64,000 nt of DNA from Victivallales bacterium. GTDB lineage: Bacteria; Verrucomicrobiota; Lentisphaeria; Victivallales; GWF2-38-69. The stretch spans positions 13,092 through 77,091 of the forward strand of contig JAIPJT010000008.1 in NCBI GenBank assembly GCA_021733985.1, in the 5' to 3' direction. Below the pieces are notes generated by a model. It searched no databases. It had not been told where the DNA came from and saw only the letters and a program-made list of their open reading frames with translations. Every line of letters begins with the position of its first letter. The stretch's first letter is position 1. The translations under genes and the position numbers were made by a program. This document shows, piece after piece, positions 2,747 to 35,433 of this stretch.

Positions 2747-4660
2747 ATGAATGTCACAAGGAAAATTATCGAGGAGCATTTGATTGAAGGGAAAATGGTT
2801 CCCGGTGAAAAAATTGCAATCCGGATTGACCAGACCCTTACTCAGGATGCTACAGGTACAATGGCGTATCTTCAGTTTGAAGCACTGGGGATCCCCAGAG
2901 TCAAAACAGAACTGTCTGTCTCCTATGTGGATCATAATATGCTCCAGAGCGGTTTTATGAATGCAGACGATCACGCTTTTCTCCAGTCTATAGCAAGAAA
3001 AAGCGGAATAAAATTTTCCAGGCCGGGTAATGGCATCTGCCATCAGGTCCATTTAGAAAGATTCGGGGTCCCAGGTAAAACACTTGTCGGTTCGGATTCT
3101 CACACGCCTACAGCCGGCGGACTCGGAATGATGGCAATAGGTGTCGGCGGGCTGGATGTTGCATTATCAATGGCCGGGCAGAAATTTTACCTGACTATGC
3201 CTGAAGTTGTTGAAGTTAGATTGACAGGTAAATTAAATGATTTTGTAAGTGCTAAAGATGTTATTCTGGAGCTGTTAAGACGTCTGAGCGTAAAAGGGGG
3301 TGTTGGAAAAGTGATGGAATTTACCGGCCCGGGTGTTGAAACTCTAACAGTTCCAGAGAGAGCTACTATAACCAATATGGGTGCCGAACTTGGCGCAACA
3401 ACTTCTTTGTTCCCTTCTGATAAAACAACAAAGCGGTTTCTTGAAATACAGGGACGGGGCAGAGATTGGAGAGAGATGAAAACCGATGCAGATTCTTCAT
3501 ATGATGACCTGGTTGAAATAAATCTATCAGTACTTGAACCGTTAATAGCACAGCCTCATATGCCGGATCAAGTTGTAAAAGTTAAGGAAATTGAGGGAAA
3601 GCCGGTTCAGCAGGTAGTTGTAGGCTCATGTACAAATTCCAGTTACAAAGATATTTCAGCCGTTGCGCAGATGCTTAGGGGCAGGAAAGTACATGAAAAT
3701 GTATCAATGGGGCTTCTGCCCGGCTCTAAACAGGTATTGAGGAAAATAACTCAGACCGGAGAACTTGATACAATTCTCGCCGCAGGAGTAAGAGTTCTTG
3801 AAAGTTCATGCGGTGCATGCATAGGAATGGGATTCTCGCCCGGCACTGACGGTGTGACACTCAGGACTTTTAACCGAAACTTCCTTGGGAGGACCGGAAC
3901 TAAAAGCGCTTTAGCGCATTTGTGTTCGCCTGAAGTTGCGGTTGCAGCTGCTATTACAGGGGAAATCGCTGATCCGAGAACACTCGGTATCCCGAAGCCT
4001 TTTGTAGATGATGAAACAACTTTTGATATAGATGATTCAATGATCCTTGAGCCCGCAGAGAATCCCGATGATATCGAAATTGTCAGAGGGCCCAATATTC
4101 AGCCCTTACCAATCAATGAAGGAATAGGAAACAAAATTAAAGGAACAACTGTTTTAAAAACCGGCGATAATATAACAACTGATCATATTATGCCTGCCGG
4201 AGCCAAAATTCTTCCTCTGCGTTCGAATGTTCCGGAAATTTCAAAACATGTTTTCGAAGTTATAGATCCTGATTTTCCGGAAAGAGCTAAAGCCGCAGGC
4301 ACCGGTATAATCATAGGCGGTGAAAACTATGGACAGGGATCCAGCAGAGAACACGCTGCGCTTGCGCCTATGTATTTAGGGATAAGAGCAAAACTGGTTA
4401 AAAGTTTTGCAAGAATTCATTTGGCTAATCTAATCAACTTCGGCATAATGCCTCTAACGTTCAAAAATCCGGACGATTATGATTCAATTGACCAGGGGGA
4501 TAAACTGGAAATCGATTTAAACACTATCCGTACCGGAGAAGTTGAAGTTAGAAATATAACCAAAGGGACAGCTTTTAAAGCCGAGCACCAGCTTTCAGAT
4601 AGGGAAATAGATATAGTTAAAGCCGGCGGAGCATTGGGTTATGTTAAGAAATTCATTTAA
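2747..4660 (+). CDS. acn: Aconitate hydratase (single-chain, about 640 aa, Aquifex-type aconitase family)
   Basis: 637-aa ORF with RBS AGGAAA upstream. Fe-S ligand and substrate motifs GSDSHTPTAGG, VGSCTNSSYKD and SCGACIGMG, plus the C-terminal swivel-domain motif GENYGQGSSREHAALAP. Confidence 0.9.
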   Translation: MNVTRKIIEEHLIEGKMVPGEKIAIRIDQTLTQDATGTMAYLQFEALGIPRVKTELSVSYVDHNMLQSGFMNADDHAFLQSIARKSGIKFSRPGNGICHQVHLERFGVPGKTLVGSDSHTPTAGGLGMMAIGVGGLDVALSMAGQKFYLTMPEVVEVRLTGKLNDFVSAKDVILELLRRLSVKGGVGKVMEFTGPGVETLTVPERATITNMGAELGATTSLFPSDKTTKRFLEIQGRGRDWREMKTDADSSYDDLVEINLSVLEPLIAQPHMPDQVVKVKEIEGKPVQQVVVGSCTNSSYKDISAVAQMLRGRKVHENVSMGLLPGSKQVLRKITQTGELDTILAAGVRVLESSCGACIGMGFSPGTDGVTLRTFNRNFLGRTGTKSALAHLCSPEVAVAAAITGEIADPRTLGIPKPFVDDETTFDIDDSMILEPAENPDDIEIVRGPNIQPLPINEGIGNKIKGTTVLKTGDNITTDHIMPAGAKILPLRSNVPEISKHVFEVIDPDFPERAKAAGTGIIIGGENYGQGSSREHAALAPMYLGIRAKLVKSFARIHLANLINFGIMPLTFKNPDDYDSIDQGDKLEIDLNTIRTGEVEVRNITKGTAFKAEHQLSDREIDIVKAGGALGYVKKFI

Positions 4661-4707
4661 CTCGTTAAACTTTATATATTAATAAGAAAAATAAATTGGA
4701 GTATTAA

Positions 4708-6021
4708 ATGGCACAGAAAGGTATATTGGAGTATGACGCAAAGGCCTTGATTGCCAAAGTCTGGGATAATTACTTTGGAACCGACTTCAAGTTTAATTTC
4801 AAATCGGTTTTGATTGATGAACAAAATTCAATGAAAAACCGGTTAAATTCAAATTCATGGTTAAAAGAACAAAACCTCGTTGTAAAACCTGATATGCTTT
4901 TTGGGAGCAGAGGTAAAAACAATTTGGTTTACTTTAAAGACAGGGAAGCCGGTGATGTGTCTCTAGACAAGGCTCAAAAATGGCTGAAGGATAAAATGGG
5001 GAGTGAAATCACATTGCTGGATGGTACAAAGGGGAAGTTGACAAGGTTTATTGTAGAGCCTTTCATCGTTCATGACCCCAAAAAAGAATATTATATTTGT
5101 GCTTCCGCTAAGCCTGAATGTGATATACTTTATATGTCATCTACTGGCGGAGTGGAAATTATGGAGGAATGGGACAAAGTAAACAGTGTAGAAATTCCTC
5201 TTGATGTCGATATTACAGAACTGCAGAAACTTATTTATGATAAAGTCCCTCAAAATATATTTAATAAAGAACGGTTCTGTAATTTTGCAGTAGGCTTCTA
5301 TCTGCTATTTAAAGATTTGCATTTAACATATCTTGAACTGAACCCTTTCGTATTGGAAAATGAAGAGGTATTTGTTCTGGATACAGTTGCAAAACTTGAC
5401 GATACTGCCGGTTACCTTATGCACGAAACATGGGGTGAAATTCAATATCATTCACCTTTCGGACAAAAAGAACTTTCTCCGGAAGAACTTATGATTAGCG
5501 AAATGGATGAAAGGTCCGGGGCAAGTTTGAAGTTAACTATCCTTAATCGTAACGGAGCTGTCTGGCCCCTTATTGCCGGCGGTGGCGCCTCAGTTGTTTT
5601 TGCAGACAGTATTGTTAAGACCTATGGCGCCGAAGAACTGGCCAATTATGGAGAATATTCGGGGAATCCTTCACAGGAAGAAACTTATCACTATGCTAAA
5701 ACAGTGATTGACTTAATGTGCCGGAAAAAAGATTCTAAAGGCAGGGACAAGGTTTTACTGATTGGAGGCGCTATTGCGAATTTCACCGATGTGGCAAAAA
5801 CCTTCAACGGTATAATTCAGGCTTTCAATGATATGGCTGATAAATTGAAGGACACCGGTGTGCGGATATATGTAAGAAGGGGCGGCCCTAATTATAAGAC
5901 CGGACTTAGAAACATTAGAACAGCTGCAAAAAAACTGGATTTAAGCATAGAAGTTTTCGGCCCTGAAACTCACCTGACAGAAATTGTTAGACTTTCGAAC
6001 GAAGACATGAAAAACTATTAA
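4708..6021 (+). CDS. aclB: ATP-citrate lyase, beta (small, SucC/ATP-grasp-like) subunit
   Basis: 437-aa ORF with GGAG RBS. Succinyl-CoA synthetase beta-like fold signature (LVVKPDMLFGSRGK, GGGASVVFAD). Immediately precedes aclA in the aclBA order known from Chlorobi. Confidence 0.88.
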   Translation: MAQKGILEYDAKALIAKVWDNYFGTDFKFNFKSVLIDEQNSMKNRLNSNSWLKEQNLVVKPDMLFGSRGKNNLVYFKDREAGDVSLDKAQKWLKDKMGSEITLLDGTKGKLTRFIVEPFIVHDPKKEYYICASAKPECDILYMSSTGGVEIMEEWDKVNSVEIPLDVDITELQKLIYDKVPQNIFNKERFCNFAVGFYLLFKDLHLTYLELNPFVLENEEVFVLDTVAKLDDTAGYLMHETWGEIQYHSPFGQKELSPEELMISEMDERSGASLKLTILNRNGAVWPLIAGGGASVVFADSIVKTYGAEELANYGEYSGNPSQEETYHYAKTVIDLMCRKKDSKGRDKVLLIGGAIANFTDVAKTFNGIIQAFNDMADKLKDTGVRIYVRRGGPNYKTGLRNIRTAAKKLDLSIEVFGPETHLTEIVRLSNEDMKNY

Positions 6022-6039
6022 AGAAGAGGGAATATATTA

Positions 6040-10153
<4,114 letters not shown>

Positions 10154-10260: not shown

Positions 10261-10350
10261 CTCATGCAGCGACAGTGAACATGCTGTTGAAAATCTATAA
10301 AAATAAATTACTTAAAACCTTTGTAATGTTCAAATCCATAATTTGGGTTT

Positions 10351-10394
10351 AAATCCTGCCGGAGCCAGTATATATAGCTCAGACAGGATTTTTT
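10351..10394 (+). terminator. Candidate intrinsic terminator for icd (hairpin plus T-run)
   Basis: AAATCCTG (10351-10358) pairs with CAGGATTT (10383-10390), with additional GAGC/GCTC pairing inside. Followed by a run of seven T (10388-10394). About 200 nt downstream of the icd stop. Confidence 0.4.
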
Positions 10395-10432: not shown

Positions 10433-10473
10433 GTAGATTGAGATTTTCTTCAACCTGCTTAAATAAAGAACCT

Positions 10474-10993
10474 ATGAAGAGTTACAAGAATTCCCTAAAA
10501 CCAGAAGAACGATCTAAACTGCTAATCCTGAACCGTGCAGAAAATTCATCAAGATATGCAGACAGGATTAAAGTATACTTCAAGTGGAATCAGAAGCATT
10601 CTGCATAAACTTGGATTTGTTTATAAAAACATCCCATGTTCCAGGTAAAGCCAATAGAAAAAAGCAGGAAGAGTTTATCAAAAAGTTTAAGCTCTATCTT
10701 CCGACACTACGGCTTTCTTTATGGATGCTTCACATCCGCAGTTTAATTCAATGCCTGCTTACGACTGGATTTATAAAGGAGAACGGGTTGAAGTTCCATC
10801 CAACACAGGCAGAGAAAGAATAAATTTAAACGGTGCGGTTAATGCAGAAACACATGAAGCAGTTGTATTAGACCGTGCTACTGTTAATGCAGACGCTACT
10901 ATTGAACTTTTCAAAGAACTTGAGTACAGGTACCCAAAAGCTCCTTCAATATAGGTATTTTCAGATAATCCTAAATGCTATTATTCTAAATAA
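10474..10993 (+). pseudogene. IS630-family (DDE) transposase remnant, broken by stops, frameshifts and deletions
   Basis: Three frames carry pieces: an HTH-region piece (LKPEERSKLL...RYADRIK), a linker (SGIRSILHKLGFVYKKTSHVPGKANRKKQEEFIKKF) and the DDE core (FMDASHPQFNSMPAYDWIYKGERVEVPSNTGRERINLNGAVN...), then an in-frame stop and VFSDNPKCYYSK. Track ORFs 10584-10823 and 10721-10954 are fragments of it. Confidence 0.6.
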
Positions 10994-11069: not shown

Positions 11070-11237
11070 AGGCATTGCCCCCAGTTTAATGAAAAGGAAA
11101 TCCTGAATAATCCAGGGTGGATCTTTGTAAATATAGCAAAGGCCTTCACCGAAAGTGAATTTGAGAAATATAAACCGATTAAGGACCGACAGTATGTTTC
11201 CGGCTTTGACAGAGAAATTAAAAAACTACTGGAATAG
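11070..11237 (+). pseudogene. Short C-terminal gene remnant (tail resembles RhuM-family proteins)
   Basis: 55-codon open frame without a start codon, ending ...IAKAFTESEFEKYKPIKDRQYVSGFDREIKKLLE*. I associate an EYEKF...SDFD(K/R)..KK tail with RhuM-family island proteins. This is from memory only. Confidence 0.25.
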
Positions 11238-11273: not shown

Positions 11274-14099
11274 ATGAAAGTTATTGCATATAATGAACTT
11301 GATACAAAAGGAGTCAGCAAACAATATGCAAAGGTAGTAAGGATGCTTGAAAATGAAGATTTCAGGTCGGCTGAAGTTAAGAAAATTTCCGGCAATTCTC
11401 TATACAGGGCTAAACTTGACTACACTAACCGTCTGCTGTTTAAACTTGTAAAATACCGGCATGCTGTTTATGCTCTTATTCTTGAGATAATCAGGAATCA
11501 TAATTATGCCGGTTCAAAGTTTTTAAACGGCGCTGCCGTTAATGAAGAAAAGTTGAAAGATGTTCTAGATACAGCAAGCTTAAAAGAAAAAGACTTTTCT
11601 CCAATAACCTATATTAATGATAAAAATTCGAATTTTAATGTTCTTGATAAAATTCTTTCATTTGATGATGTTCAGAATGAAGTTTTTAATTTAAGGACAC
11701 CAATAATTATTATTGGTTCCGCTGGAAGTGGAAAAACAGTTCTAACTCTAGAAAAACTAAAACATCTCCATGGAGATGGACTTTATGTTACACTTTCACC
11801 ATATTTAGTAGAAAATTCCAGAAATCTCTATTATTCAAATTATTATGTTAATGACAAACAGAACATTGATTTCCTTTCATTCCGGGAATTTATTGAAACA
11901 ATTAAAATTCCCGCCGGTAAAGAAATTTCAGTAGAATCTTTTAATGAATGGTTTTTAAGAAATAAGGCAAACTTTAAAATAAAAGATTCACATAAAATCT
12001 ATGAGGAATTTAACGGTGTTTTGTCAGGTTCAACTGTTAATGCACAGTATTTAACAAAAGAAGAATATTTAAGTAAAGGAATAAAACAGTCAATATTTAA
12101 TAATTTTGAAAGAGAAGAAGTATATAATATATTTGAACGCTATTTGAAGTTTCTTAGTATGTCCGAATTTTATGATACCAATATAATTTCTTATGATTAT
12201 CTCAAACTATGCAGCCCTAAATATGATTTTGTTATTGTAGATGAAGTTCAGGATTTAACAGCCAGCCAGCTTAATTTAATTATTAAGTCTCTAAAAAATG
12301 TTCATAACTTCATACTTTGCGGTGATTCAAACCAAATTGTTCATCCCAATTTTTTTTCCTGGGCGACCGTCAAGACTCTATTCTATGAAAAAAAAACATA
12401 TGAGCCTAAAAAACTAATCAGAGTTTTAAATAAGAACTTTAGAAATTCACCCGAAGTTACAAATATCTCTAATGATCTTCTTTTACTCAAAAATAGAAGA
12501 TTCGGTTCAATTGACAAAGAATCAAATTTTCTGGTAAATAGTTCACTCTCAAATTCGGGCAGTATTGAACTTCTGAAAAATTCGCCGGCTATAAAAGCAA
12601 AGCTTAATAATAATACAGCTTCTTCTACTAAGTATGCTGTAATAGTAATGAGAAACGAAGACAAAGCTGAGGCTTCTAAATTTTTCAAAACTCCTTTGAT
12701 TTTTTCTATTCAGGAAGCAAAAGGTTTAGAATATGAAAATATTATTCTGTATAATTTCGTATCTGCCAATGCAAAGGAATTTACTCAAATAACAGAAGGA
12801 GTTTCAAAAGAAGATTTAAAAAAAGAGCTGAAATACGCAAGAAACAGAAACAAGGCTGATAAAACTCTCGAAACATATAAGTTTTATATTAACTCACTTT
12901 ATGTGGCTTTTACGCGCGCCGTTAAAAATCTTTTTATAATTGAAAACAACCGAAAACACAACCTGCTTGAATTATTAGGATTAATTGATTTCAGTGATCA
13001 GACAAATGTAAAAAAACAGGAATCAAATTCAGACGATTGGAAAAGAGAAGCACACCGCCTGGAATTACAAGGAAAAAAGGAGCAGGCAGATGCTATTAAA
13101 AGAAAAATTTTAAAAACTATAGACGTACCATGGGATGTTCTTACATACGAAAGTCTACCGGATAAAATAACAGAAGCATTTAACCCGGAAAGATATAACA
13201 ATCAGGTTAAAATGCTAATTTTTGAATATGCTGTGATTTATCATGTTCCGTATCTTATTGATAGGCTCATAGAATTTAAATTTAACAGAGCGAAAAGAGC
13301 TGATATTGAAATTAGAAATATCCAAAGAAAATATTATTCAGAGTATACCGCCAAAAACTATAACAACCTGAATCAGAAAATTAATAAGTATGGAATAGAT
13401 TTCAGAAATAAAATTAATCAAACTCCGTTAATGATAGCAACAGAACATGGTAAAGTCGACTTAATAAAATCGTTAATTAAAAATGATGCAGATATTTCTC
13501 TTCGTGATTCAGTAGGCAGGCAGGCTCAACACATAGCTTTACGAAAAGCTTTTACGGATAGTAAATATGCTGAAAATGTTCTTGCAGAAGTTTACAGGCT
13601 TTTAGAAACATCAAGTTTCAAGGTTAAAGTTCATGATAAAATGATTAAAATTGATAATAGATGTATGCCTTTTTTCATATTTAACTTAATGTTTTCGGCA
13701 CAAGTTGAACTTATGAAAAATAAAATTGATTACGATGTACCAGCATTCCAGGCAGGTGATTTTGTAAAGGCATTAGCAGCTTTTCCTGAGTCAATTATGC
13801 CTGCTTACAGAAAGAAACGTTCATACATTTCTTCTATACTATCTGGAAACGAAGTAATGAAAACCACAGGTAGTGGTTATAATAGAAAAATATTTCTGAG
13901 AATTAGGACAGGTTATTATATGATAAACCCAATACTCGAAATTGATGTTAATGACAAATGGGTAAATGCCTATGAATTGATGCAGATGGAACATTATAAA
14001 AGCTCTTCTATATCAATACACAAGAGAGTTATGGAATTCCTGGAAACAAGGAAAAAGGATATAACAGAACATTTGGAAATGATCACCAATTATGGTTGA
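11274..14099 (+). CDS. Superfamily-1 (UvrD/Rep-like) helicase with RelE/ParE-like N-terminal module and C-terminal ankyrin repeats
   Basis: 941-aa ORF. Walker A IIGSAGSGKTVLTL, Walker B/motif II FVIVDEVQDL, C-terminal SF1 motif LYVAFTRAVKNLFIIE. N-terminal KKISGNSLYRAKLDYTNRLLFKLV...ILEIIRNHNY resembles the RelE/ParE toxin core. Ankyrin signature NQTPLMIATEHGKVDLIKSLIKNDADISLRDSVGRQAQHIALRKA. Confidence 0.8.
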   Translation: MKVIAYNELDTKGVSKQYAKVVRMLENEDFRSAEVKKISGNSLYRAKLDYTNRLLFKLVKYRHAVYALILEIIRNHNYAGSKFLNGAAVNEEKLKDVLDTASLKEKDFSPITYINDKNSNFNVLDKILSFDDVQNEVFNLRTPIIIIGSAGSGKTVLTLEKLKHLHGDGLYVTLSPYLVENSRNLYYSNYYVNDKQNIDFLSFREFIETIKIPAGKEISVESFNEWFLRNKANFKIKDSHKIYEEFNGVLSGSTVNAQYLTKEEYLSKGIKQSIFNNFEREEVYNIFERYLKFLSMSEFYDTNIISYDYLKLCSPKYDFVIVDEVQDLTASQLNLIIKSLKNVHNFILCGDSNQIVHPNFFSWATVKTLFYEKKTYEPKKLIRVLNKNFRNSPEVTNISNDLLLLKNRRFGSIDKESNFLVNSSLSNSGSIELLKNSPAIKAKLNNNTASSTKYAVIVMRNEDKAEASKFFKTPLIFSIQEAKGLEYENIILYNFVSANAKEFTQITEGVSKEDLKKELKYARNRNKADKTLETYKFYINSLYVAFTRAVKNLFIIENNRKHNLLELLGLIDFSDQTNVKKQESNSDDWKREAHRLELQGKKEQADAIKRKILKTIDVPWDVLTYESLPDKITEAFNPERYNNQVKMLIFEYAVIYHVPYLIDRLIEFKFNRAKRADIEIRNIQRKYYSEYTAKNYNNLNQKINKYGIDFRNKINQTPLMIATEHGKVDLIKSLIKNDADISLRDSVGRQAQHIALRKAFTDSKYAENVLAEVYRLLETSSFKVKVHDKMIKIDNRCMPFFIFNLMFSAQVELMKNKIDYDVPAFQAGDFVKALAAFPESIMPAYRKKRSYISSILSGNEVMKTTGSGYNRKIFLRIRTGYYMINPILEIDVNDKWVNAYELMQMEHYKSSSISIHKRVMEFLETRKKDITEHLEMITNYG

Positions 14100-14154
14100 T
14101 TTTGCATAACCGGATTAACAAAAAAAAGTATTCCGATAGCTTTTGAGGTAGAAC

Positions 14155-14231
14155 TGGTGGTTCCGGCAGGACTCGAACCTGCGACCAGACGATTATGAGT
14201 CGCCTGCTCTAACCAACTGAGCTACGGAACC
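14155..14231 (-). tRNA. tRNA with CAU anticodon (Met or lysidine-modified Ile2; the anticodon arm looks Ile2-like)
   Basis: Manual cloverleaf, 77 nt: GGTTCCG TA GCTC AGTTGGTTA GAGC A GGCGA CTCATAA TCGTC TGGTC GCAGG TTCGAGT CCTGC CGGAACC A CCA. The GGCGACTCATAATCG arm matches E. coli ileX as I recall it, rather than elongator or initiator Met. Confidence 0.9.
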
Positions 14232-29637: not shown

Positions 29638-32600
29638 TCATAATGATTTATCTAACAGCAACTTCTCAAAAGTTCTTAGAGCTAAAGGTTTTGAATAATA
29701 AAACCCCTGAATGTAGTCTGTATTGTTTCTAAGCATGAAATCAAGCTGTTCTTTAGTTTCCACCCCTTCCGCGAGTACTTGCATTTTAAGACTTTTAACA
29801 AGTTTTATTATTGATTTTATTATGTTTGCCGAATTGATCTTCGGATTTTCAATGTTTTGAATAAAGCTTTTATCGATTTTTACAATTGAAGTGGGAAGCT
29901 CATTTAGAGTTAGCAGAGAAGAATATCCGGTACCGAAGTCATCAAGGGAAAATTCTATATTCATAGAACTTGTGAGTTCATTCATTATTCGTTTAGCCTC
30001 TTTCAGATTTTTGAGAATTTCCGTTTCTGTAATTTCAAAATAAATCTGAGGCTTGATTTTTTTAAAATTTTTATCAAATAAATATTTTACACTGTTTATG
30101 AAATTAGGATAGAATAGCTGAACTGCTGAAATATTTATTGCAAAATAAAATTGTTTAAAATTATTTCTATTGTAAAGTGTTATATAATCTGAAAAGACTT
30201 TATTCATTATCCAGTTGCCTATAGGAATAATCTGTCCGTTACTTTCAGCTATTTCAATAAATTTCTGAATAGAATGGTTTTTGAATTCTCTACGGTTCCA
30301 CCTTAATAGAGCTTCAGCTCCTATAATCTCAGCTTTTTTATTATATACCGGCTGGTATAAAAGCGACAGCTCTTTATTATTTATTACTTCTCTCTGGACA
30401 ATTTCTATTTTTTGTCGAGTGATTATTTCTGAACTGAGTTCTTTGTCAAAAAAAGCATAAGTATTTTTCCCATACTGTTTGGCTTTATACATGGCAATAT
30501 CAGCGCGTCTCAACAGTTCTTCCGAGGACATATTAGATGAACTGCAAATTGCTATCCCGATACTGGTTGATATTTTTAAATGTATTTCTTTTACTTCAAA
30601 AGGTTCACGAATAAGATTCAGATAACGCTCTGCAATTTCATACAGGTTCTTAGTATCTTTATATCCTTCTATAAGGACCCCGAATTCGTCTCCGCTTAAC
30701 CTTGCACTGAAATCTCTTTTTCTCGCTATTTTTTTAAGGTTCACCCCCATTCTTTTTATAACTTCGTCACCAACTTTATGTCCATATGTATCGTTAATCC
30801 CTTTGAAACCGTCAATATCAATAAAAAGCAGAGCAATATTATAACTCCTGTCTTTTCGTAATATTGATTTAGATAAGAAATGTGCAAATTTGTTTCTGTT
30901 GTACAATCCAGTAAGCATATCAAAGTCTGCCTGTCTTTTCAGGTCAAGCTCATTCTGCTTAAGCTCTGTAATATCTGTATGAGCACCTATGATTCCGACA
31001 GTTTTATCTAAGGGGGCAATTATATTTGAGAATTTAACTAAATGCCATTTTACAACTTTATCTTTACCTAACATTTTTAGTTTAGCTGTAAATTCTTTAC
31101 TGAAAGTATAGTCTTTAAAATTATTGAAAAGTATTTTTATCTTTTGAAGGTCTTCAGCACAAAACAGTCTTTTATATCCTTCGAATGAATCCGGAATATC
31201 ATAAATTTCAAAACCGAGATTTATTTTTAAACCCGGAGAAATGACAAACTCTTCTTTTTCAAAGTTCCAACTGAACCATCCGCATGAAATTCTGTCAAAC
31301 GAAAAATTACTTTTACGGCACTCTTCAAATCGACTGGAGCAATTCAAGCCTTCTAAATACTTTTCGTTGCTAATATCTACTAAGAGCCCTCTAATGTGGG
31401 CTTTGTTGTAATAATAACCTCTGCTTAATAAAGTTTTCGGTAATTTATCCGTTCTTGTAACCTCTACTTTTTTATCGAAAGACATAATGTCTTTTTCATA
31501 ATTCAGGAGTTCTTCGCTTCGTTTCTTGTCATGAGGCATGATCAAACCAGTAATTTCATCTTTTGTAAAAGTTTTTTTCCCTTGATCAAGCCCAAGTATT
31601 CTATAGCCGCCTTTATCAAAAATAAAGGTTTCATTTTTAATATCATAAACGTAAGTACATGCTGAATTACCGACTAAATTATTTTCTATATTTAAAGCCT
31701 TATCAGCTGCATTAACAGCTTCATTTTTAAGCCTGGTTATATCCTCAAAAGATACAGTATATCCTAAATACTTCTTATTGTCATAATATCCTGTTATATT
31801 GATTTTTACCCAGTTTCCTGTATCAAGTTTAACTTCTTTGGTAATTTTAGTTTTTTTCTGATCAAATTCCCCTAATGCATCTATAAGTTCAAAATCATCT
31901 ATATCAATTTCCAGCTCACTGATTTTTCTTCCAATATCCTCTTCTCTTAACGATATATATTTATCAATATTTCCTTCATAGCTTTTCAAGCGGAAATCGT
32001 TATCCAGAAAGAGGAAACTTATATCTGTATTGCAGATAGCATTCTCATTATAAATATTCTTTTCATGTATTTCTTCTATCTTTTTCTCATATTCGGAGTG
32101 CAGTTTTTTTAGTTCCTGTTTCTGCTTATTAAGCTCCTGTCTTTTTTGGACAAGTTTAGTTATATCTACAATAGTAAAAAGAATGAATTCGGAATTGAAA
32201 AATTTTATCCTGTTCAAATATAAATTGCAGTAAAGTTCTTCAGTTAAAGTTGCCGGAGAAAATTTTATTTCTCTAAATTTAAATTCATCCTCTGAAGTCA
32301 GATTGGAAATTTTTTCTAATATTGTAATCATCTCACCGGAAGAGACTATCAAATTCTTTAAGTTATTGCCTTTCAGCTCTTTTTCAGGCATATTGAACAA
32401 TTTGGCTGCAGCAAGGTTGGAGTAAGTTACTTTTCCATCCCTGTTTACCAGGATTGAAGCTACAGGAAGCCTGTTAACCATATGATAAAATTTATTTTCC
32501 TGAAATTTTTCCTCTGTAATATCAAAACATACGCCTATTATCCCGGAACTCCTTCCGGACTTAACTTTATTATAACTACCGGTGAACTTAATATAACCAG

Positions 32601-35433
32601 CATGTTTTCCAGGTAAAGTAACCTTTGTTTCTCCTTTAAATAAAGACTTTTTCTTTATAGTAGCTTTTAGTTTATTCCTAAATTCACGGACTTTTGATTT
32701 AGGAAGTATTTTCTTTAGCGACAAGAGAGTTGGAGTAAAAGTTTTTTCTTTTCTTCCGAAAATATTATACATATTGGGATTCCAGCTAAATCTATAAGTT
32801 TGTAAATCCCATTCCCATATCCCCATTTTTGCAATATCAACAGCCTGTGAAAGTTTTTCTGCTTGTTGCCTGAGTTTTCCCTGTGAACGCTTGAATTCAT
32901 CTATGTCAATAAAAGTAATAACAGCTCCGTCAACCTTATTTTTCTGTGTAAGATAAGGCAGAATTTTCAAAATATAATATTTATATTGCTGAGATATAAT
33001 TTCTTTTTTGAAGACTGTTCCGTTCTTTATTACTTCATCTGTTTTTTTGACGAAATTAGAATAGTTAAAATTATGAGAAAAATTTTTAATCGATCTGCCG
33101 ATATCATCCTCTCTGAAATTAAAAAACTTCTGAACTGTGGGATTATAAAATTTAATATTCAATTTTTTGTCCACAAATATAATCCCGAAATCAGTGGACT
33201 TCATTAAATTCTGAAAATCAGAAGTCATCTCGTTCAGCTCTCTGATCTTTTCCTGATGTTCTGAATTTACAGTGTAGAGTTCTTCATTTACGGAATGCAG
33301 CTCTTCATTTGTTGACTGCAGTTCCTCATTTGAAGCAAGCAGTTCTTCGTTTGAAGACTGCAGCTCCTCGTTAGAAGTTTCAAGTTCTTCAACAGTCGTA
33401 GAAAGCTCTTCTTTTGTTTTCTGAAGCTTACTTTCATAATCGGATATTATTTGCTGAGAATAGTCATCAAGTTCATTTACTTTTACAACTTTATCTGTTT
33501 CTGTTTCACCGGAATCAATTATCTTTATTATATGGTTAATGATTTCTGAGTTATCAGACAGTACAGGATGAATAATCAAGTTTTTCCGAGTATATTCATC
33601 CTTAATTTTTATATTCTCTATTAATACTTTTTCTTTCAGTTGTTCAGCTTTAATAAGACCTGACCTGATTGCGGGTCTTATACTTTTATGAGTTACTTCC
33701 CTAATGTCCGGTTTTAGAATACCTTCTTTAAAAGTTAGGAATTCTCCTGCATCTCCGAATATATGTACCACATTATAATCCGTATCTATCATATATCCGT
33801 AGTTAATGACAGACTTCAAAGCAGTGTGATAAGTTGATAAACTTGAGTAGTCATTATTTTGGCTGTTTGGATTGTATTTTGTGTTCTCAGGATATTCTTT
33901 ATTTTTTTCTGTAATGTTTGAATAGCTCCTCTGTTCATTTTTTGAAAGAAGCCGCTCGTTCATTTTATTTATTAAAAGTTTTCTGTCACTTTTTTTTGTC
34001 TGCCTGTAAATTTTCCATTTCTGTGAAAGAACCTGCATATTCAAAATATTTTTACCAAGGGTTTCGCTCGGGCCGAGGACAAGATAACCCGGCGCATTCA
34101 GGCTGAACCTGAAAATGGAGATTAATTTTTCCTGTATCTCAGGTTTTAAGTATATAAGCAGGTTTTTGCAACTGATAAGATCCATATTTGTGAACGGCGG
34201 ATCGAGAATCAGGTTGTGTGGAGAGAAAACTATAGCATTTCTTATTTCGTTTGTTATTCGATAACCTTTTGAGGTTTTTTCAAAAAACTTTCTGAGTCTT
34301 TCAGGTGAAATTTTTTCTGCTTGTTCATTACTATAAAGGCCGGCGGCTGCTTTTTTAAGGTAATCCTCTTTAATATCTGTAGCAAATATTTTTATATTAA
34401 ACGGAAGTTTCTTTTCTATGGCAAATTCATTGAATATAATAGCGACTGAGTAGACTTCTTCACCGGTACTACAACCGGGTATCCAGATCCTTAGACTTCT
34501 GCTTTGTGCTTCAGCTATTTTAAACAATTCGGGAATTACTTTAATTTTCACTTCCTGATAAGAGTCTTCATCCCTGAAAAAAGAAGTCACGCCTATTATC
34601 AGATCGTCATGAAGCGTTTTCAGTTCATTGCTGTTTGCTGTTAACTCCTCTGCATAATCCCTGATATTATCGTAGCCTCCGGTTTTTACCCTTCTTTCTA
34701 TTCTGCGTAAGACGGTAGTAGGTTTATAATTTGATAAATCGAATTTATATCTTTCCTGGATAAGTTTAAATATTTTATCAAGCCCTTCAAAATTTTTATT
34801 CCTATTTCTGACCTCTTCAGAATATTTAAACCTGTCCGGAGCTTTTATATATTTACTTATAAGTGCAGGCATTTGTGTTACTGAACTAATTACTTCTGCA
34901 GTTCCGGTACCAATTGCTGATTTTGGCATGCCGTCAAACAAAGCAAGTTCAGGCTTTTGAACCATTACAAGACCGTTATTTTTTTTTATATTTACAATTC
35001 CCGTTGAACCATCGCTACCGGTACCGGACATAACTATTGCTACAGCGTTCCTCCCGTATTCATCTGCTAGTGATTTAAAGAAAATATTAATAGGTAAATT
35101 CAACAGGTGCTGCTCGCGCTGTTGCTTGACAAGCTTGAACTTATTTTCTTTTAAAAATACATTATTATTCGGGGGAATTAAAAAAATAGTGCCTTTAGTT
35201 ATAGGCATGTTGTCAGAAATAGTTTTGATTTTTAACTGTGTCTTTCTTGCAAGAAGCTGATCCATCAGACTGTTGAAATCAGGGGATAAGTGCTGTATCA
35301 CTACATAGGCGGTGTTTGTATCATAAAGTTCTTCGGTAATACTGTTGAAAAATTCCTGGATAGGCTCCAAACCGCCGGCTGATGCACCTATTCCTATTAC
35401 AAAAAGACCGCCTTTCTCATCACCCATTCCCAA
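29638..35433 (-). CDS. Giant multidomain signalling protein: CheB-like methylesterase, CheR-like methyltransferase, coiled coil, multiple PAS, GGDEF, EAL
   Basis: 1931-aa ORF. CheB motifs ([22 protein letters not shown]). CheR SAM site ([19 protein letters not shown]). Heptad array [31 protein letters not shown]. At least five PAS-like modules. GGDEF domain with an SGDEF site ([11 protein letters not shown]). EAL domain ([29 protein letters not shown]). Confidence 0.85.

Follow-up and report, generated by a model that had tools for sequence, protein, structure and literature searches.

Nhi and Hna are anti-phage proteins that unite a nuclease and a helicase in a single polypeptide, and the eukaryotic Schlafen proteins of group III (SLFN11/13/14) carry an N-terminal translation-targeting RNase together with a C-terminal helicase domain of superfamily 1 (SF1). 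AbiO, a validated single-protein abortive infection (Abi) system from lactococci, combines an N-terminal PD-(D/E)xK nuclease with an SF1 helicase resembling Schlafen group 3 and is toxic at high copy number (PMC13064643). In the CoCoNuT systems, CnuH has a RelE/colicin D-like domain, termed 'RTL', immediately before its SF1 helicase; the activity of this domain was left uncertain (Bell et al. 2024; PMC11090510). RNases of the RelE family work in the ribosomal A site, as laid out in the main text of a survey of mono- and multidomain RelE/ParE toxins, which sets aside many multidomain proteins lacking an identifiable antitoxin and, in that main text, contains no helicase or ankyrin fusions (Gerdes 2025; PMC11980606). 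Here we analyse a gene from a Victivallales bacterium, located in a 64,000-nucleotide stretch of contig JAIPJT010000008.1 (the window), that encodes a protein of 941 amino acids (aa) in which a RelE/YoeB-like domain, a UvrD-like SF1A helicase core, an ankyrin-type solenoid and a family-specific C-terminal domain (C-domain) follow one another. The open reading frame (ORF) and its four parts had been described in an earlier note made from the sequence alone, and its coordinates, strand and ATG start proved exact (Table 1). A database entry, P0001 ('UvrD-helicase domain-containing protein [Victivallales bacterium]'), is 100% identical to the protein, and because this identical protein is on record and full-length homologues exist, the ORF is not a chance ORF.

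Our preferred reading, put forward tentatively and with somewhat less than even confidence, is that the protein belongs to a family of uncharacterised, widespread and mobile single-polypeptide conflict proteins, candidate anti-phage or anti-mobile-element factors of the abortive-infection type. The N-terminal YoeB/RelE-like domain would then be the effector RNase, halting translation, probably by cutting mRNA on the ribosome, and the UvrD-like SF1A core, as a sensor or motor powered by ATP, would engage single-stranded nucleic acid that is foreign or aberrant. The ankyrin solenoid and the C-domain would bind a protein or nucleic-acid trigger and/or keep the RNase domain inactive in cis; such masking in cis, as a fused 'antitoxin', would explain the lack of an antitoxin gene. 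The concept of a toxin domain controlled in cis is that of fused toxin–antitoxin (TA) defence proteins of the CapRel type, with autoinhibition being hypothetical for the present protein. By analogy, the joining of a toxin/nuclease fold, an NTPase and a repeat-based sensor, which is the architectural logic of single-polypeptide conflict proteins, is suggestive of such a role.

The N-terminus, which the earlier note had called RelE/ParE-like, was correctly recognised at the level of the fold. With 35 family N-termini as input, AlphaFold2 (AF2) modelled aa 1-100 at a predicted local distance difference test (pLDDT) score of 88.4, and the model shows the order b1-a1-b2-b3-b4 of strands and helix. 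When the PDB was searched with this model by Foldseek, the top matches were nearly all RelE-superfamily toxins, with a probability of 1.00. The best of them was 6n90, annotated 'YoeB/ParE' (E 4.5e-4), others being E. coli YoeB (2a6r), YafQ, HigB, M. tuberculosis RelJK and Cami1, and the HigB and Cami1 structures matched are complexes with the 70S ribosome. Comparison with S. aureus YoeB (Sa2YoeB) gave a template modelling (TM) score of 0.62 and a root-mean-square deviation of 2.1-2.3, and the gyrase-inhibiting ParE2 (5cw7) came only at rank 44, with RNase-type members far higher. On the model, the domain can be assigned to the RelE/ParE (BECR) fold, closest to the RNase branch (YoeB, YafQ, HigB). 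In fold and strand order it is like the mRNA interferases YoeB, RelE, YafQ and HigB; unlike the YoeB/RelE toxins, it has only one helix before the sheet, and whereas those toxins are about 90 aa long, here it opens a protein of 941 aa whose gene has no antitoxin gene beside it in the 80 loci surveyed below.

Considering that the domain also differs from YoeB/RelE toxins in having no significant sequence similarity to them, the mapping of catalytic residues depends on the fold and on a weak alignment. In this hhalign alignment E34 falls on E46 of YoeB and R53 on R65, and H76 and Y78 come after strand 4, as do H83 and Y84 in YoeB, a placement made by eye from strand order and not from superposed coordinates. 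On this tentative mapping, an acidic residue, an Arg, a His and a Tyr are conserved where YoeB has E46, R65, H83 and Y84. Position 34 is D or E in 60/60 homologues, and K37, R45, R53, E71, H76 and Y78 are invariant in all 60. The same six residues are also kept in the E. coli, Shigella, Piscirickettsia, Methylosinus and Deinococcus copies, and among plasmid and island copies only position 34 varies, being Q in the Methylosinus copy. This pattern of conservation looks like that of the RNase branch, from which we infer catalysis. Alternatively, the domain could be ParE-like and catalytically dead, serving for binding only, and the protein would then be a DNA helicase specialised in repair or in resolving replication conflicts and recruited by protein-protein contacts. 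The Pfam family ParE_like is the sole recurrent Pfam signal in the domain, found in nine of the 35 N-termini with a best E of 0.0034 and in each case under the cut-off (YoeB_toxin matched one member), and the annotation of 6n90, the insignificant sequence similarity to RNase toxins and a core resembling DNA helicases point the same way, as does the likewise uncertain activity of the RelE-like domain of CnuH (PMC11090510). We nevertheless regard a dead module as quite improbable: the D/E, R, H and Y set does not vary where the weak alignment and strand order would put the catalytic positions of YoeB, RNase-type toxins rank above ParE2 in the fold search, and a mobile, patchy distribution is atypical of repair helicases.

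The UvrD/Rep-type SF1 core is complete, in agreement with the earlier note. Pfam gave weak but coherent SF1 matches (Viral_helicase1, 1.8e-9; AAA_19; UvrD-helicase, 8e-8; UvrD_C_2), with the UvrD models covered only in part, and SLFN-g3_helicase matched aa 144-403 (E 2.8e-6), a signature of the SLFN-g3/DUF2075 type. Against the PDB, a family profile of aa 125-575 matched PcrA, UvrD, Rep, FBH1 and UvrD1 with E values of 5e-8 to 5e-5, the first three at 5e-8 to 3e-6. The SF1 motifs follow in order as GSAGSGKT, DEVQD, GDSNQ, NFRNS (family consensus NYRNS), EAKGLEY and VAFTRA, their core residues being invariant in alignments A1 (60 homologues) and A6; among the 60 homologues, G148-T155, D323-D327, G350, D351, N353, Q354, R390, T547 and R548 do not vary. 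Judged by its sequence, the core is UvrD-like SF1A (DNA-type), not Upf1-like.

The described systems most similar in outline can be separated from the present protein on these features. Like CnuH, a predicted RNA-targeting conflict system, it has a RelE-like domain before an SF1 helicase, found in both proteins by structure comparison only. CnuH, however, is UPF1-like, has an SmpB-like OB domain and lies in operons with McrB/McrC-type partners, whereas the core here is UvrD/PcrA/Rep-like, the gene stands alone, and ankyrin repeats and a novel C-domain are present; because CnuH is UPF1-like and has McrBC-type partners, the 941-aa protein is not a CnuH member. As in AbiO, Nhi and Hna, a single gene joins an N-terminal effector fold of a kind that cuts nucleic acid to an SF1 helicase bearing an SLFN-g3/DUF2075-like signature; unlike in those proteins, the effector has the RelE fold and is not a PD-(D/E)xK DNA nuclease, and the ankyrin and C-terminal parts are additional. 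The PADLOC profile of AbiO matches aa 300-560 only, that is, the helicase core (E 6.6e-9). GajB of Gabija, which shares a UvrD-like core, is the best PADLOC family (E 3.2e-10), a weak and generic match; GajB depends on the adjacent OLD-nuclease GajA, which is not found at the 80 loci surveyed below, and the architectures differ. The likeness to Schlafen group III is an analogy only, the RNase folds being unrelated. A long shot is that the family forms a new enzyme class, driven by ATP and serving translation surveillance or immunity, in which a UvrD-like motor and a ribosome-dependent mRNA endonuclease of RelE/YoeB type in one polypeptide would couple sensing by the helicase to cleavage of A-site mRNA, with the ankyrin and C-terminal domains reading a conserved cellular or viral cue. 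If so, it would be a bacterial functional analogue of the Schlafen or Upf1-SMG6 logic, spread by plasmids and islands, with E. coli ST131 and Shigella plasmids bearing virulence genes among the carriers.

The ankyrin repeats, of which the earlier note had recognised at least one pair, extend further than the pair that Pfam detects (Ank_2, Ank and Ank_3, aa 699-758). Sequence matches in the PDB to designed ankyrin repeat proteins (DARPin) and ankyrin cover aa 674-762, with E down to 2.8e-19, and an AF2 model of aa 575-941 (pLDDT 89.8, predicted TM score 0.87) shows a helical hairpin followed by an ankyrin-type solenoid over about aa 586-780. In Foldseek searches of the PDB and BFVD this model retrieved ankyrin proteins only, aligned over 240-290 columns and including ankyrin and FEM1B, so that no relatives of the C-domain by fold came from these two databases. 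The C-terminus, in which no motif had been recognised, indeed gave no match for its last ~160 aa (781-941) in a per-member Pfam scan or a PDB profile search. The model of the C-domain consists of a beta-hairpin, helices, a four-stranded sheet with an invariant R-G-x-Y-x-x-N-P motif and a terminal helix, and by eye it looks winged-helix-like. A profile of the domain found 598 clusters among 1.84e9 (1.84 billion) representatives, and each full-length match has the domain at the family's C-terminal position. Short matches share an offset of ~57, fitting a gene call from the conserved Met720, and are best read as contig-end fragments. The C-domain is family-restricted, with no detectable relatives outside the family by sequence or by fold in these searches. 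One subfamily (P0108, P0129, P0131, P0137, P0127, P0054) carries an extension of ~450 aa with DUF1186 and a SecA-type SEC-C zinc-finger, or with SEC-C alone.

The protein is not the evolutionary orphan it had been taken for. The family is large, strongly conserved and of fixed architecture, with more than 120 full-length homologues from many phyla, and it occurs on plasmids and islands of many phyla, including those of E. coli and Shigella. The 120 best database matches are nearly all full-length (916-1,415 aa) and 47-65% identical over 96-100% of the query, the exception being an 88%-identical, truncated copy. Across the 60 aligned homologues conservation spans the whole length of the protein, with columns 56% identical on average and some 150 positions that never vary. 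In a scan of one genome per species across about 185,000 species, the gene was found in at least 227 species of more than eight phyla, among them Victivallales, Verrucomicrobiota, Bacteroidota, Gamma-, Beta-, Delta- and Zetaproteobacteria, Nitrospirota, Acidobacteriota and Myxococcales; isolates with the gene include Methylomicrobium lacus, Mucilaginibacter psychrotolerans, Massilia, Janthinobacterium and Paraburkholderia. Searching PLSDB by tblastn gave 144 plasmid records (129 full-length), with Shigella accounting for 101, E. coli for 13 and Piscirickettsia salmonis for 10, and with the Methylosinus trichosporium OB3b megaplasmid and a Deinococcus plasmid among the remainder. Among complete E. 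coli genomes 116/5,426 (2%) have the gene, mostly on the chromosome, including ST131 strain EC958. None of 50,697 phage records matched and IMG/VR yielded one full-length locus, so that across these two collections the family is essentially absent from phages.

Very high end-to-end conservation across phyla would be expected if the target were a conserved cellular machine, and it favours the view that the protein is an accessory factor of RNA or translation quality control. Such a factor would insert its RelE-like domain into the A site of the ribosome or use it to bind RNA, and its helicase would strip or clear stalled or collided ribosomes of mRNA; its ankyrin and C-terminal domains would bind a conserved cellular partner. 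The neighbours, mostly housekeeping genes, fit this view, as does the subfamily that has gained a SEC-C zinc-finger motif, alone or together with DUF1186; SecA-type SEC-C domains bind SecB and ribosomes. It also draws on the HigB and Cami1 structures solved with the 70S ribosome and on the action of RelE-family RNases in the A site, as the main text of the toxin survey has it (PMC11980606). Against it stand the patchy distribution (2% of E. coli genomes; at least 227 of about 185,000 species), the location on plasmids and islands, frequent pseudogenisation, loci that differ even between 88%-identical relatives, and a core that is UvrD-like (DNA-type SF1A) rather than Upf1-like, and taken together we consider a quality-control factor rather unlikely.

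Gene neighbourhoods were surveyed at 80 loci by BLAST clustering of all ORFs within 5 kb. No neighbour is conserved among the 80 loci, in line with the lack of a partner gene described earlier: no ORF cluster occurs in more than five of them, the most widespread being generic PAS/histidine kinase sensor kinases and RND proteins, and no OLD or TOPRIM neighbour was found. In relatives, the gaps to unrelated flanking genes are ~36 nt and therefore leave no space for a small antitoxin or an RNA antitoxin; a conserved partner or antitoxin is ruled out by the clustering and these gaps. An Rfam scan for an RNA antitoxin or cis-acting RNA found the tRNA alone. Lacking a conserved neighbour, room for a small partner and an Rfam RNA element, the gene can be taken as a true stand-alone that is accessory and moves horizontally. 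Three Bacteroidales loci (L048, L059, L060) have a co-directional ORF of 470-490 aa, without a Pfam match, 5-41 nt after the helicase gene, which may be a lineage-specific partner. This ~480-aa ORF and the SNF2 neighbour (three loci) were rejected as a general partner, being lineage-specific and unrelated to the DUF1186 extension. In all five E. coli loci inspected, an ORF of ~180 aa lies ~35-110 nt 5' of the helicase gene (L085 8339-8902; L086 13422-13955; L091 8401-8964); it is labelled 'inovirus-type Gp2', 'UCP030791 putative phage-derived protein' or hypothetical, has no Pfam or NCBIfam match, and was dismissed as a partner since the annotations of the Shigella plasmid and of the other plasmid loci examined show no such ORF upstream.

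Decay of the gene is frequent. The closest relative (88% identity; locus L001 8001-10174 on a 1.2-Mb contig) is split into ORFs of 665 aa and 59 aa, and it adjoins genes for Fic and RhuM (PADLOC PDC-S05) at a locus that differs from that of the window. Two E. coli strains have pseudogene copies, one with an internal stop and the other with a frameshift and an internal stop (L087 12049-14898; L090 9049-11890), and some E. coli records match only 18-53% of the gene. Both E. coli pseudogenes lie just upstream of a cdiBA contact-dependent inhibition locus. Unrelated contexts and frequent pseudogenisation indicate that the gene is not a core housekeeping helicase. High sequence conservation might suggest a housekeeping helicase, conserved widely and kept in fixed synteny within the core genome, a picture to which we give next to no credence: no neighbour is conserved in the 80 loci, 116/5,426 E. 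coli genomes have the gene, plasmids carry it, and the 88%-identical relative sits truncated at another locus, so that distribution, plasmid carriage and lack of synteny refute it. The earlier note had named this picture, combined with an N-terminus unlike RelE/ParE, as the contrary of its own proposal, and the findings on fold and synteny agree with neither half.

The settings of the mobile copies raise the possibility that the gene serves its carrier element, through plasmid or island maintenance (as a single-gene addiction module), exclusion of competitors, or counter-defence during transfer. A toxin-type fold is present, and in addition to the 101 Shigella plasmid records the gene occurs on conjugative and mobilizable plasmids. 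The inspected Shigella dysenteriae plasmid copy (L084 8938-11850) stands beside polysaccharide deacetylase, capU, virK and lpxM genes and near ospG and ipaH9.8, so that this plasmid bears virulence genes as well. The copy of EC958 (L086 14049-16898) lies in a CP4-like island, and like the Shigella plasmid copy it is annotated merely 'UvrD-helicase domain-containing' or 'hypothetical'. The E. coli CP4-like integrative elements with the gene also carry inovirus-Gp2, a YeeP-like GTPase, Ag43, a KlcA-like anti-restriction protein, RadC, DUF932 and CbtA/YeeU modules, as well as an AlpA-type helix-turn-helix (HTH) protein, so annotated in the plasmid copy. On the Deinococcus plasmid the gene adjoins a DUF1778/GNAT TA pair. 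The anti-restriction, RadC, DUF932, CbtA/YeeU and TA neighbours speak for service to the carrier element, yet many copies lie in chromosomal settings without recognisable mobile-element genes, classical addiction requires an unstable antidote and none is encoded, and frequent pseudogenes suggest that loss is tolerated, which makes a role for the carrier decidedly doubtful.

We return to the reading as single-polypeptide conflict proteins, for which AbiO and CnuH offer architectural precedents and for which carriage on plasmids and on islands such as the CP4-like ones of E. coli, patchy distribution, frequent decay and a few neighbourhoods are suggestive. One clear defence-rich neighbourhood is the region of Piscirickettsia salmonis plasmid pPSA1-3 (L088 1022-14982), where the homologue lies among DruA, MazEF, RelE/ParE with an HTH protein, a recombinase, SIR2 with an ATP-binding protein, and a RecB-like nuclease; Fic and RhuM adjoin the closest relative, and SNF2/ZorD-like neighbours occur in 2-3 loci. 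In the window, an IS630 remnant, a tRNA-Met gene and the window's lowest GC content at third codon positions (GC3) are likewise suggestive. Several observations weigh against this reading. Neither a PDB profile search nor hhalign against single sequences gave significant sequence-level similarity of the N-terminal domain to RelE/YoeB. Immune sensors usually diversify; here identity across phyla is 41-65% with the presumed sensor domains included (mean column identity 56%), an unusually high conservation of the whole protein, far above that of immune sensors. The 144 immediate neighbours in the 80 loci represent 167 Pfam families, none in more than three members, and are mostly housekeeping genes (phosphoenolpyruvate carboxylase, chorismate synthase, DnaB, PdxA) with few defence-like ones, so that defence-island enrichment among them is weak and by no means clear. 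PADLOC-DB 2.0.0 returned no full-length system-specific match, its partial generic matches being to GajB, RTasHel, AbiO and PDC-S68 at E 1e-10 or worse, and NCBIfam no match to a specific defence model. Searches by accession or domain combination found no paper on the family and no published phenotype.

Overall, the evidence for a defence role of the family is suggestive but not conclusive. What the analysis shows are the folds, the intact motifs, the conservation of putative active-site residues, a fixed architecture, the lack of a partner gene and mobility, whereas RNase activity, autoinhibition, the trigger and a defence phenotype are inferred. The proposal of a defence or addiction gene in the earlier note can be retained for its mobile-looking context and some conflict-gene loci, while its functional part stays conjectural: the scan that had been suggested produced generic partial helicase matches in PADLOC and no specific system, neighbours are mostly housekeeping genes, and the family is nearly absent from the two phage collections. 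If the conflict model holds, the family would be an undescribed single-gene immune or conflict system in which an RNase of RelE/YoeB type is controlled by a UvrD-like helicase, extending the multidomain RelE/ParE toxins and the nuclease-helicase defence proteins to a combination that neither of the surveys consulted reports. The end-to-end conservation of a mobile gene raises the question of a conserved target or trigger. The family is large and easily tested, since two medically relevant and genetically tractable hosts have intact copies, E. coli (ST131 EC958) and Shigella (on plasmids). We rate its interest as moderate to high because of the large family, the tractable pathogens, the family-restricted C-domain and the testable mechanism.

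Table 1. Features of the helicase-fusion gene and its immediate surroundings, in window coordinates
Feature	Position	Strand	Content or basis
Complete ORF, 941 aa + stop, ATG start	11274..14099	+	RelE/YoeB-like domain, SF1A helicase, ankyrin (ANK) solenoid, family-specific C-domain
Predicted N-terminal RelE/ParE-superfamily (BECR) fold domain, aa 1-90	11274..11543	+	AF2 model, Foldseek PDB, Pfam ParE_like, residue conservation
Variable linker, aa 91-124	11544..11645	+	Low conservation in 60-homologue alignment; pLDDT drops to 61 at aa 91-100
UvrD/PcrA/Rep-like SF1A helicase core, aa 125-560	11646..12953	+	Pfam, family profile vs PDB, invariant motifs
Walker A GSAGSGKT, aa 148-155	11715..11738	+	Direct reading; invariant in 60-homologue alignment
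Walker B / motif II DEVQD, aa 323-327	12240..12254	+	Direct reading; invariant in 60-homologue alignment
Motif VI VAFTRA, aa 544-549	12903..12920	+	Direct reading; T547, R548 invariant
Helical hairpin + ankyrin-type solenoid, aa ~586-780	13029..13613	+	AF2, Foldseek, Pfam, PDB sequence matches
Pfam-detectable ANK pair, aa 699-758	13368-13547	+	Pfam
Family-specific C-terminal alpha/beta domain, aa 781-941	13614..14096	+	AF2 model; no Pfam or PDB sequence match
Frameshifted IS630-family transposase remnant, 5' of helicase gene	10438..10954	+	ORF fragments; DDE_3; NCBIfam transpos_IS630
tRNA-Met (CAT), 3' end toward helicase stop codon, 55 nt off	14155..14231	-	ARAGORN; Rfam tRNA, 72 bits

The flanks are those the earlier note had named, a transposase remnant upstream, here an IS630/DDE_3 fragment, and a tRNA, here tRNA-Met(CAT), downstream. 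The remnant is spread over at least three frames; its DDE_3 fragment lies at 10721-10951 (E 1.8e-6), and the match to NCBIfam transpos_IS630 (E 8e-8) covers only positions 149-222 of 299. Upstream of it, the gene order is aconitase, ATP-citrate lyase beta, ATP-citrate lyase alpha and monomeric isocitrate dehydrogenase, and on the downstream side of the helicase gene an ATP-grasp gene comes after the tRNA. With a GC content of 0.306 and a GC3 of 0.239, the gene is the lowest in both among the 31 long ORFs in the window (mean GC3 0.306, sd 0.037), its GC and GC3 lying ~1.6-1.8 sd under the mean. The A+T-richness remarked on earlier is real in this sense; it is also modest, the glycosyltransferase genes at 17-24 kb being about as A+T-rich.

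An island att site was also considered. The sole tRNA-like repeat is a 36-nt inverted match of 72% between 10346-10381, after the isocitrate dehydrogenase stop, and 14144-14179, at the 3' end of the tRNA-Met gene; its left arm also folds into a hairpin with a T-run behind it, likely the isocitrate dehydrogenase terminator. Being inverted, matched at 72% and overlapping this terminator hairpin, the repeat probably arose by chance, and the att site was rejected. A scan for promoters and terminators was uninformative, with promoters scoring no higher than the shuffled background, and look-ups of the exact protein, made for presence or absence at strain level, matched only contigs of the same strain. 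A stop-free tail of 45 codons, ILNNPGWIFVNIAKAFTESEFEKYKPIKDRQYVSGFDREIKKLLE*, at 11100-11236 (+) ends 37 nt before the helicase ATG; it gave no match in an NCBIfam scan and may be the relic of a destroyed gene. The aconitase/ATP-citrate lyase/isocitrate dehydrogenase cluster at 2747-10153 (+) amounts to a gene set of the reductive (reverse) tricarboxylic acid cycle type, in a genome labelled as a Victivallales metagenome-assembled genome, and the longest ORF in the window, of 1,929 aa, lies at 29638-35427 (-).

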